Shown in pieces: positions 40,508-42,755 of a stretch of DNA of 64,000 nt. The stretch lies in the sequence record OR352941.1, one strand, 5' to 3'. A program made the position numbers and the translations under genes. The stretch's first letter is position 1, and each line of letters opens with the position of its first letter. This DNA comes from Escherichia phage AV111. The notes beneath the pieces are model-generated. The model saw only the letters and a list, made by a program, of their open reading frames with translations. It searched no databases and was not told where the DNA came from.

Positions 40508-41023
40508 TTAAAGCAAATCAATCATTTTAACAGTTGGCAAAACGATTTCTTCTTCAATATAAGCAAATTCAACACATTCAACTACACGCAAGAAATCATA
40601 ATCATAATATTCAGAAGCATGACCAAGAATATCAATGAGACCTTCTGATACCAAATATCCATTCTCACGGAACAGGTCGAATACACGCGATTCGTCTTCT
40701 TCAGATTTATTACCAAGGTCGACTTCAATATCAAAGACCTTTTTAATGAATTCTGGATAAAGCTGGTCCGAGAACAGTCCTTCAACTAAGTATTCATAGA
40801 TTAAAAGTGAGCAATCACTGAATGGTGTATTACCACAGTAACGTTCAGCTTTAGTGCTGGAATGACGACTCTTAAATTTCTTCAAAAGATATTTAAACTG
40901 TTGGAGCTCATGCTCTTCCACACCAAATAACGTTTTGGTTTTATAGTTGTCGCCGTCATTTTCCCAAGTAGTGACATCAATTACGTAACCCTTAGGAATT
41001 GTACTGCCTAAACAAATATTCAT
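40508..41023 (-). CDS. hypothetical acidic protein
   Basis: 171 aa ORF. Confidence 0.5.
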   Translation of the reverse strand: MNICLGSTIPKGYVIDVTTWENDGDNYKTKTLFGVEEHELQQFKYLLKKFKSRHSSTKAERYCGNTPFSDCSLLIYEYLVEGLFSDQLYPEFIKKVFDIEVDLGNKSEEDESRVFDLFRENGYLVSEGLIDILGHASEYYDYDFLRVVECVEFAYIEEEIVLPTVKMIDLL

Positions 41024-41027
41024 TTAC

Positions 41028-41318
41028 TCACCGTACCATATTAATGTAATTATATTCAATGCAACGTAATTTCAAAGGATTCTTGAAAATATCATATTCA
41101 AGAGGACCTTTTTCTGTTTCAATAAAGAAATCAAAGTTCACACTATTAAATTTGCGGTCTTCCCAAAGTAATTTAACCTGTGAAGATGAACGGTCGACGT
41201 AAACCTTTTCAACTTCAAAGTGGGTCAAAATACCATAGTAATCGACTAGTGCTTTAGCTGCACGTTGATCGCTCTCATATCCGTTCTCGACAGATTTTAC
41301 TTTAGCATAAAGAATCAT
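41028..41318 (-). CDS. hypothetical protein
   Basis: 96 aa ORF. Confidence 0.5.
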   Translation of the reverse strand: MILYAKVKSVENGYESDQRAAKALVDYYGILTHFEVEKVYVDRSSSQVKLLWEDRKFNSVNFDFFIETEKGPLEYDIFKNPLKLRCIEYNYINMVR

Positions 41319-41686
41319 GAATGTTCCACCATTTCAAAGGTATGAGCATCAACAATATGATACCAGTCAAAATTTTCTTCCGCGTTTTTATAAATTTCGC
41401 GAAGAGCCTCAACAGTTTTTCCTGTAGCAACAAGGTCGTCAATACCACCAAGAGGATAACAGTCATAACCAGCAAACAGAAGGAAATTAATAGTTTCTGT
41501 AGGTTCTGGATGCAGTGTACCGTTGTCATCGACTACTTCAAAGAAAGTGTAAGAAGGAGTACAAGTTTTAATCCAAGCCCATGCTTGAGCTGCCGAATCA
41601 AATGGTCTGCGTATTAAACGACAATCAGGGTCTTTAGAAGGATTTGCTTCAAAATCCGCATATACGTGATATTTCATTTTACTCAC
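41315..41686 (-). CDS. hypothetical protein
   Basis: 123 aa ORF, coupled to neighbours. Confidence 0.5.
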   Translation of the reverse strand: MSKMKYHVYADFEANPSKDPDCRLIRRPFDSAAQAWAWIKTCTPSYTFFEVVDDNGTLHPEPTETINFLLFAGYDCYPLGGIDDLVATGKTVEALREIYKNAEENFDWYHIVDAHTFEMVEHS

Positions 41687-41886
41687 CTTTTTGCAATTTT
41701 ATCCATAACGATAGCGATTAAACCGATTAGAAATGCTACTACCAATGAGATAGAATTTTCAGTTGTTGTCAGTAGTCCGCAAATGAATCCTACAAACATC
41801 GAAAAACTAAAAGCCATTGAAGCAATTACTACAGCAACATTACGAATCAGTTCAGCGCGTTTCATTTTATTTCTCCATTTACTCAT
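41683..41886 (-). CDS. small membrane protein
   Basis: 67 aa, two TM segments; early promoter 41903-41932. Confidence 0.5.
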   Translation of the reverse strand: MSKWRNKMKRAELIRNVAVVIASMAFSFSMFVGFICGLLTTTENSISLVVAFLIGLIAIVMDKIAKR

Positions 41887-41902
41887 TTGTTTTGATAGGA
41901 CT

Positions 41903-41932
41903 ACTATAACATAATCCTATCAGCATGTAAAC
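41903..41932 (-). promoter_or_regulatory. early promoter (stem-loop cassette family)
   Basis: Minus GTTTACA-N17-TATAGT in TAGGACTA...TAGGATTA near-palindrome. Confidence 0.55.
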
Positions 41933-41935
41933 TAC

Positions 41936-42223
41936 TTACAGAAGAGTTTTTGCAATAATTTTAAGCTGAGCTACAGAAATATGCTTAGCTTTAAACAGTG
42001 CAGTCTCTTCAGCCGGAGAGATAACAATAGTAGCGCCGTCTTTCTTAGCAGACCATCCATCCCCTAAGTAAACAGTACCTTTTACTTCTTCGCCGTCAAC
42101 CAGACTAATCATTGGTTTACCCTCACGTCCTTTATTTGTTTTAATAACTTCGGAAGTAAGGGTTGCTTCGGTCAGAGTAGAAACGTTAGCATCAGGTGAT
42201 ATAAATTCTTTATAGGTTTTCAT
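41936..42223 (-). CDS. ipI: internal protein I (injected anti-restriction protein)
   Basis: 95 aa as in T4 IPI; MKTYKEFISP leader; adjacent to 57B as in T4; early promoter 42258-42287. Confidence 0.7.
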   Translation of the reverse strand: MKTYKEFISPDANVSTLTEATLTSEVIKTNKGREGKPMISLVDGEEVKGTVYLGDGWSAKKDGATIVISPAEETALFKAKHISVAQLKIIAKTLL

Positions 42224-42242
42224 TTTATTTCCTTGAGGTCGT

Positions 42243-42755
42243 TTATTTGATAGGATGATAGTAACACGCCATCATCCTTATGTAAACTGTTTTGTGTGTA
42301 AACTGTTTTGTGACGGCCCAATCTAGTTTTAAGGGTTCTTTGTATTCACGGTCGAGAATAACCGGAATAGCTACATCACCACTGAATGATAGTTGGCCAA
42401 CGTTGTATGATAACGTTATATGTGGAGTGTAGTCGTCGAAATCATGAGTAGCACCTAAAGCTCGTGCATACTGATGACGACATCTAAGATATTCAGAATC
42501 AAGAACTAAAACCAGTACAGCGCCGTCGTCAGTTTTCCATACCTCAAAGTGTCCTGATTCGGCAACAGAATAACTACCACTAGATGTAGTATATGGTATG
42601 TTTACACGTGAATAACAAATTGTTGAATGAAGCTTTTCGCGTGGTACTGGATTAGGAATTCTTAATTTGCGCTGGAGGTCTTCCAGCGCATCAAGTGTTA
42701 ATTCCGAAAATTTAGCTGCGACGTAGAGGCCTTGTGAAAAGTCCTCAAATTTCAT
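42243..42755 (-). CDS. 57B: gp57B, 2H phosphoesterase (Acb1 anti-CBASS nuclease family)
   Basis: Two H-x-T/S motifs (HSTICYS, HITLSYN); between ipI and 57A as in T4. Confidence 0.7.
42258..42303 (-). promoter_or_regulatory. early promoter upstream of ipI with duplicated -35
   Basis: Minus GTTTACA-N17-TACTAT with GGATGAT/ATCATCC inverted repeat; second GTTTACA copy 16 nt further upstream. Confidence 0.5.

Follow-up and report, generated by a model that had tools for sequence, protein, structure and literature searches.

In bacteriophage T4, gene 57B encodes Acb1, a 2H phosphoesterase with the catalytic tetrad H44/T46/H113/T115 (T4 numbering), which stacks nucleobases on Y12, W74, F107, and W147, contacts adenine through E141, and closes residues 145–152 as a lid over the bound cyclic dinucleotide (Hobbs et al., PMC9117128). 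The adjacency of Acb1 to ipI, the gene of internal protein I (IPI), and its island-like character were already remarked on by these authors in the Acb1 discovery paper. The T4 order (NC_000866, 72.6–74.4 kb) is 57A, 57B, ipI, trna.4, trna.3, trna.2, and the tRNA cluster. Early promoters combined with stem-loops (PeSLs) were recognized earlier as cassettes for recombination within plastic regions of the genomes of T4-like phages (Arbiol et al. 2010; Comeau et al. 2014; PMC4122927), the consensus of the PST/T4 type being TTTACW-N17-TAYWAT (PMC4122927). In phage Bas37, the slot downstream of 57B holds Bas37_0260, an anti-McrBC internal protein (HIDEN-SEQ preprint). Here we describe the corresponding block of Escherichia phage AV111 (OR352941.1), located at 40508–42755 of the 64,000-nt stretch that was analyzed (the window), which comprises 57B, ipI, and four small open reading frames (ORFs) that a preliminary description had put forward as candidates for counter-defense.

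The Acb1–IPI block of AV111

To judge from its sequence, the genome carrying the block is that of a T4-like, Mosigvirus-type phage. The region 40200–43000 is 96.4% identical in nucleotides to Mosigvirus genomes, e.g., vB_EcoM_WFL6982, and has matches in 742 phage records of the collection used throughout (50,697 records). The ORF listing placed all six genes on the minus strand, at the coordinates given for them in the preliminary description. On that strand, the order is 57A (42755–42985, directly upstream of 57B), 57B, ipI, the four ORFs, tRNA-Met, tRNA-Asn, an endonuclease-like ORF, and tRNA-Arg. Gene order, strand, and spacing are the same as in T4, and so is the presence of an early promoter and stem-loop in front of both ipI and trna.4. 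The two loci differ in four respects: AV111 has an extra 171-aa gene between trna.2 and the tRNAs; its tRNA set consists of Met, Asn, and Arg instead of the eight tRNAs of T4; a NUMOD3/DUF559-type endonuclease candidate is found where T4 has the GIY-YIG gene segB; and the C-terminus of its Acb1 is altered. The best explanation is that AV111 has here the early accessory block usual in T-even phages, gene 1 - 57A - 57B - internal-protein slot - trna.4 - trna.3 - trna.2 - 171-aa gene - tRNA cluster, and we consider this explanation, taken as a whole with the mode of action proposed below, to be probable. The locus is already known, being the canonical Acb1-IPI block with its conserved small genes, and as it stands the analysis mainly confirms the block in this window.

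The product of 57B (42243..42755, minus strand; 170 aa) matched the Pfam family PF23474 (Acb1) with an E-value of 4.6e-58 and 195.5 bits (cut-off 27) over residues 8–147, and Acb1 of Erwinia phage FBB1 (PDB 7t26) with an E-value of 3.6e-58, which bears out the family proposed for it earlier. The catalytic residues, whose presence had been left to be confirmed by alignment, are in place: both HxT motifs are found, as H43-S-T45 and H112-I-T114, and align with H44/T46/H113/T115 of T4. The substrate-pocket residues Y11, W73, F106, E140, and W146 are also all identical to the aligned T4 positions. The likeness to the known Acb1 proteins (T4 gp57B, FBB1 Acb1, PDB 7t26/7t27) includes the full-length Pfam match, the HxT/HxT tetrad, the Y/W/F/W stacking residues, and the adenine-contacting E. 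Related Tequatrovirus copies are ~86% identical. Homologs of Acb1 occur in 1490 phage records. These residues identify the 57B product as a 2H phosphoesterase of the Acb1 type in which the HxT/HxT tetrad and the stacking residues are intact, and by homology it would hydrolyze CBASS (cyclic-oligonucleotide-based antiphage signaling system) signals of the 3'3'-cGAMP/cUA/cAAA type.

The identity of ipI (41936..42223, minus strand; 95 aa) was also confirmed. Its product matched Pfam PF11634 (IPI_T4) with an E-value of 5.8e-50 and 167.6 bits (threshold 25), and the solved structure of mature T4 IPI* (PDB 2jub) with an E-value of 2.3e-41. It is identical to T4 IPI at 83 of 95 positions (87%), and the mature part at 71 of 76, so that the AV111 mature protein differs by five substitutions while sharing with T4 the 95-aa length, the mature part, the capsid-targeting peptide, and the cleavage context. 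The targeting peptide, MKTYKEFISPDANVSTLTE followed by ATL in AV111, aligns with MKTFKEFTSTTTPVSTITE followed by ATL in T4, the ends being ...TLTE/ATL and ...TITE/ATL, respectively. This is the context of the prohead protease (...L/I-x-E, then A), and cleavage is predicted. IPI would be packaged in the head, where the targeting peptide would be cut after ...LTE, and the mature IPI* would be injected with the DNA to block type IV restriction of the GmrSD type.

Unlike its neighbors, ipI is a sporadic cassette of the block: it was found by tblastn in only 291 phage records, versus 572–936 for each of the four small ORFs. The slot that it occupies is variable, holding ip7 and two other genes in ESCO47, ip9/ip6 and others in VR25, and one additional gene in Mizar. 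Bas37_0260 sits in the same PeSL-flanked slot downstream of 57B and shows that this slot exchanges anti-restriction cargo, although its sequence is unrelated to that of the AV111 ipI and it says nothing on trna.4/3/2. By comparison of these genomes, ipI is an exchangeable cassette between two PeSLs, and it is in this quality that the internal-protein slot is of practical interest.

The two PeSLs were predicted by means of a promoter scan, folding of the region, and pattern enrichment. The one before ipI (42253..42296, minus strand) contains TTTACA-17-TACTAT (42286..42258), with the -10 box in the loop of the hairpin GGATGAT...ATCATCC, and fits the published consensus exactly. The one before trna.4 (41894..41931, minus strand) contains TTTACA-17-TATAGT (41931..41903), one position off the consensus, with the -10 box in the loop of the hairpin GATAGGA...TCCTATC. 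Both predicted hairpins fold, and that of trna.4 is kept in nine phages of six or more genera, with compensatory changes in three of the six consensus pairs. The strict pattern TTTACW-N17-TAYWAT has six hits in the window (at 7788, 16695, 20912, 30162, 37297, and 42258), versus 0.28 expected, and all of them are on the minus strand. With the published PeSLs, those of AV111 share the combination of promoter and stem-loop, the enrichment on the early strand, and a flanking gene slot that is variable among close relatives; they differ in the TATAGT of the trna.4 copy and in a tandem duplication of the upstream half of the ipI element, which runs into coding sequence.

The preliminary description placed the four ORFs in one transcription unit with ipI and 57B. 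They do form a tightly packed operon, in which the Shine-Dalgarno sequence of trna.3 overlaps the stop of trna.4, the start of trna.2 overlaps the stop of trna.3 (ATGA), and the 171-aa gene starts 4 nt past the stop of trna.2. However, because ipI and trna.4 are each preceded by a predicted early PeSL of their own, the four ORFs are not simply one unit with ipI and 57B. The second PeSL would head an early operon trna.4 - trna.3 - trna.2 - 171-aa gene, which probably continues into the tRNA genes. Two of the starts given earlier, 41886 and 41686, are probably misplaced, considering the position of the Shine-Dalgarno sequences. For trna.4, the start is most likely the second ATG, at 41865 (60 aa), which has GGAG in front of it; no Shine-Dalgarno sequence accompanies the ATG at 41886, which is located approximately at the predicted transcript start, and relatives annotate the short form. 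For trna.3, it is most likely the ATG at 41677 (120 aa, with AGGTGA upstream) and not the GTG at 41686.

The C-terminus of the AV111 Acb1

The 57B ORF has 170 codons in AV111, versus 151–152 aa in T4, Mizar, WFL6982, GADS24, and O157 typing phage 6. The AV111 protein ends in LDWA, VTKQ, and 19 extra residues, which replace LDWA-EDLK-stop. At the nucleotide level, the last four codons and the stop of 57B (AAGATCTAAAATAATTT, 17 nt in the relatives) are swapped for a copy of the next 16–17 nt. This results in a tandem repeat with two exact copies of CACAAAACAGTTTACA on the minus strand, at 42281–42296 and 42297–42312, the distal of which overwrites the last codons and the stop; it is at the site of this distal copy (42297–42312) that the relatives carry AAGATCTAAAATAATTT. 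The sequence CACAAAACAGTTTACA corresponds to the upstream/-35 portion of the promoter element before ipI and makes up the upstream half of the first PeSL. The 19 extra residues are therefore present in the Acb1 of AV111 because the tandem copy of the promoter element removed the 57B stop. Given this identity of the duplicated 16-mer, it could plausibly have arisen by an aberrant recombination of PeSLs.

The change affects the lid. Of the T4 lid LDWADDLK, AV111 retains LDWA, including W147, but has four other residues in place of the final four and 19 more beyond them, so that the native C-terminal lid (residues 145–152) is half kept, with the rest changed and extended. This modified substrate lid calls for caution before AV111 is assumed to be CBASS-resistant.

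The alternative is that the 170-aa Acb1 results from a sequencing or assembly error in the repeat-like promoter element and that the true product is the normal 151-aa enzyme. The form of the change, a block replaced by a same-length copy of the adjacent 16–17 nt, would agree with such an error. So would the fact that the variant is private, since no other occurrence of the altered end was found in the 50,697 phage records or, by exact search, in IMG/VR, and that one near-identical relative, which matches the AV111 57B through residue 147, differs solely at the replaced block. Against this, PeSLs are documented recombination substrates, so a real rearrangement is plausible, and the ORF is open down to a natural TAA, with the ipI promoter copy beside the gene intact. 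An error is thus a possibility to be reckoned with, although we do not regard it as probable.

The four genes between ipI and the tRNAs

Conservation indicates that the four ORFs are real genes and not chance ORFs, because they are under purifying selection (ratio of nonsynonymous to synonymous substitution rates, dN/dS, of 0.10–0.20 versus Mizar, WFL6982, and T4), each matches one PHROG family (E-values of 1e-31 to 1e-68), and each was widely found by tblastn, in the numbers of records given above. They had been called uncharacterized, which is still true of their function. They are not orphans, however, as three are orthologs of T4 Trna.4, Trna.3, and Trna.2, and the fourth belongs to a common phage family (phrog_2290). 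For Trna.2 and Trna.4, orthology to the T4 genes is supported by both sequence and position. Paralogy among the four was considered and rejected (hhalign probabilities ≤0.5%). Searches of Pfam, NCBIfam, and PADLOC returned no function or anti-defense match for any of them, and profile searches against the PDB with the three soluble families (Trna.3, Trna.2, and the 171-aa protein) gave nothing significant. When the predicted models of Trna.3 and the 171-aa protein were compared by fold, no catalytic, RNA-binding, or RNA-modifying relative was retrieved. In the literature on trna.2/3/4 (Y07B/C/D) and PF26894, only a DRT1 pulldown and the HIDEN-SEQ tables turned up.

Trna.4 (T4 Y07D; 41683..41865, minus strand; 60 aa; phrog_1692, E-value 1.5e-31) is 82% identical to T4 Trna.4 (MAFFT), occurs in 936 phage records, and has a dN/dS of 0.15–0.2. 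It is a basic protein whose hydropathy profile displays two hydrophobic helices, at residues ~9–31 and ~37–55. The earlier suggestion of a small membrane protein at 41683–41886 is therefore in agreement with this two-helix profile, as a prediction, and Trna.4 probably forms a hairpin in the inner membrane, with its N- and C-termini on the cytoplasmic side.

Trna.3 (T4 Y07C; 41315..41677, minus strand; 120 aa; phrog_1411, E-value 7e-46) is ~39–43% identical to its T4 counterpart and occurs in 761 phage records. Its Pfam family, PF26894 (Phage_T4_Y07C), is carried by near-identical database proteins (representatives of 98%-identical clusters), the local Pfam copy being without that model; the family name is descriptive only. 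The AlphaFold2 (AF2) model, built on an alignment of 110 sequences (predicted local distance difference test score, pLDDT, 89; predicted template modeling score, pTM, 0.53), has two tandem beta-beta-alpha-beta modules. Over the 110 sequences, a core FxG..YYPxGG...D...W is conserved, formed by F68, G70, Y73, Y74, P75, G77, G78, D81, and W105. The protein is acidic, with an isoelectric point (pI) of 4.4–5.8 in the family. A possible loop for binding phosphoribosyl pyrophosphate (GGIDDLVATGKT; NCBIfam, E-values of 0.03–0.2) was attributed to chance, as the homologs have DLIAKAxTEDE and the motif is not conserved.

Trna.3 thus consists of the small PF26894 module duplicated in tandem. Its C-terminal module is also found as a stand-alone protein of 55–70 aa in many phage contigs. 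Klebsiella and Enterobacter T4-like phages have an extra stand-alone copy of PF26894 immediately upstream of trna.3 (L005:2326-2511 and L006:2088-2279 in the loci compared), and in Gelderlandvirus phages only a single-module form of Trna.3 (70 aa) is present. The neighbors of the stand-alone PF26894 genes are arrays of small unknown early genes, among which no informative partner and no tRNAs were found.

Trna.2 (T4 Y07B; 41028..41318, minus strand; 96 aa; phrog_2023, E-value 6e-45) is 79% identical to T4 Trna.2 (MAFFT) and occurs in 802 phage records. The family is narrow, since no more than 15 of the clusters in a set of 1.84 billion representatives belong to it at 50% identity, and the profile search of the PDB found no relative of it.

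The gene closest to the tRNAs (40508..41023, minus strand; phrog_2290, E-value 9e-69) has no counterpart at the T4 position and encodes an acidic protein of 171 aa (pI 4.5). Its family has members in 572 phage records, among them some Tequatrovirus and Gaprivervirus phages and phages of Klebsiella, Enterobacter, and Aeromonas, and it is wider in IMG/VR, where proteins of 130–175 aa occur in contigs of large or jumbo phages (loci L027-L050). Although members are only 24–34% identical overall, nine residues are invariant (G12, N22, D23, D25, N26, Y27, T29, N65, and R146), and the pI was 4.1–4.9 in 19 of 19 diverse members. The family can be recognized by an invariant W-E-N-D-G-D-N-Y-x-T hairpin ("WENDGDNY") accompanied by G-N and R-V motifs. 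In the AF2 model (pLDDT 89, pTM 0.84), a sheet of three strands packs against a bundle of helices. The protein was related only to uncharacterized phage proteins in BFVD and had no relative in the PDB or Pfam, and a Pfam search with the 19 diverse members revealed no shared family. The reading of ENDGDNY as an EF-hand or calcium loop was discarded because the spacing is wrong; the sole PDB resemblance is to a beta-hairpin of green fluorescent protein (GFP).

Outside the Straboviridae, Klebsiella phage KP13-7, a 358-kb jumbo phage of the genus Alcyoneusvirus, has a homolog of the 171-aa protein 142 nt upstream of a tRNA cluster (L016, 3001-3474). Its position there suggests that the gene was transferred horizontally, either along with tRNA regions or into them.

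Possible roles of the four proteins

Based on the data above, the four proteins would be dispensable early accessory factors without an enzyme-like fold. Their most likely mode of action would be the binding of host proteins, which could serve the takeover of the host or a strain-specific counter-defense. The acidic Trna.3 and 171-aa proteins could be binders of the inhibitor or mimic type, and a possible partner of Trna.2 is the DRT1 reverse-transcriptase system. In a T4 transposon screen (HIDEN-SEQ), trna.2, trna.3, and trna.4 are non-essential, with 92–98% of TA sites hit.

Several points weigh against this explanation of the block. In one of the nine conditional sheets of HIDEN-SEQ, the one from which the trna rows are taken, T4 trna.2/3/4 were unchanged (adjusted p = 1). 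As near-core genes of the enterobacterial Tevenvirinae, trna.4/3/2 are not sporadic like most anti-defense genes, and guilt by association is weakened as a consequence. The set of invariant polar residues in the 171-aa family would fit a small enzyme or ligand binder too, at odds with a protein devoid of catalysis. The operon and its promoters are predictions. As for Acb1, the altered lid may impair the AV111 enzyme, and the altered end may itself be a sequencing or assembly artefact.

A stronger proposal is that the four ORFs constitute an anti-defense island with Acb1 and IPI, each neutralizing a bacterial immune system. The genes are small, early, and non-essential, and adjoin two proven counter-defense genes in an arrangement that Hobbs et al. 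(PMC9117128) called island-like; two of the four products have an acidic, inhibitor-like composition; and the neighboring internal-protein slot repeatedly hosts anti-restriction proteins. In addition, Trna.2 and Inh were the sole phage proteins enriched with wild-type DRT1 over a reverse-transcriptase-dead control in T4-infected cells (PMC13275509), which is the only positive defense-related datum for any of the four. The authors of that study, however, left Trna.2 aside as non-explanatory, since it is absent from most DRT1-sensitive phages (PMC13275509). Nor do the four resemble characterized anti-defense proteins, by sequence in all cases and by fold for the Trna.3 and 171-aa models, and the HIDEN-SEQ sheet mentioned above reports no conditional phenotype for the trna genes. 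The adjacency from which the preliminary description had derived its anti-defense candidates is largely inherited synteny, since trna.4/3/2 are conserved together with the tRNA cluster across several Tevenvirinae genera. An anti-defense role of the four ORFs is, in sum, plausible but unsupported, and an island in which every gene has such a role seems doubtful.

That at least one of the four is a genuine counter-defense protein is likewise only a tentative idea. It is rather unlikely that at least one of them represents a new kind of counter-defense factor, for which the best candidates would be Trna.2, acting on the DRT1 reverse-transcriptase/nitrilase, and the WENDGDNY protein, whose polar site would bind a host immune protein or signal. 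If one family did prove to be counter-defense, ~570–940 sequenced T4-like phages per family would be annotated at once, and an inhibitor family of unknown target would be added to the phage toolbox. Trna.2 and DRT1 are the most directly testable pair; the other main leads are the modified lid of Acb1 and the invariant site in the 171-aa proteins.

It is improbable, although conceivable, that the 171-aa protein is a small enzyme or a ligand sponge, with N22/D23/D25/N26/Y27/T29, N65, and R146 forming a site that binds or converts a small molecule, e.g., a nucleotide signal. The nine invariant residues are mostly polar and are kept at 24–34% identity; in the confidently predicted model, they are placed in a beta-hairpin turn, a loop, and the C-terminal strand; and the neighboring Acb1 illustrates the destruction of small-molecule signals as a strategy at this locus. 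Such conservation could also mark a protein-binding epitope or a folding nucleus, however, and the single sequence resemblance is to the GFP hairpin.

Very improbable is a role of the four ORFs in serving the adjacent tRNAs, by maturation, modification, or protection from host anticodon nucleases: trna.4/3/2 are always directly upstream of the tRNA cluster, and homologs of the 171-aa protein lie beside or inside tRNA clusters in seven of eight phage genomes (this window and six of seven others, one of them an Alcyoneusvirus), but none of the 24 distant IMG/VR loci with relatives of the 171-aa protein has a tRNA within 3 kb, the genes of stand-alone PF26894 proteins have ordinary small early genes but no tRNAs around them, the Trna.3 and 171-aa models resemble no RNA-binding or RNA-modifying fold, and the tRNA regions of T4-like phages are plastic and collect accessory genes (PMC4122927). 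A tRNA-linked function of the 171-aa family was downgraded for the first of these reasons, the adjacency being a feature of enterobacterial T4-like phages and one Alcyoneusvirus.

The position of the four ORFs before a tRNA cluster is as the preliminary description had it, with tRNA-Met(cat) (40354–40428) and tRNA-Asn(gtt) (40276–40347) immediately downstream and tRNA-Arg at 39475–39550, all on the minus strand and all detected by both ARAGORN and Rfam (RF00005 for the first two). The Rfam search over 38.5–43.1 kb revealed these three tRNAs only. Between tRNA-Asn and tRNA-Arg, a 223-aa ORF (39536–40207, minus strand) has signatures of NUMOD3 and of a DUF559/RAP-type (PD-(D/E)xK-like) endonuclease, and its 3' end overlaps tRNA-Arg by 15 nt. 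These signatures indicate that it is probably a different homing endonuclease in the niche of T4 segB. On the other side of tRNA-Arg, a 131-aa ORF (39112–39507, minus strand) overlaps this tRNA with its 5' end, and relatives annotate there a 114-aa gene (phrog_3355) that starts past the tRNA.

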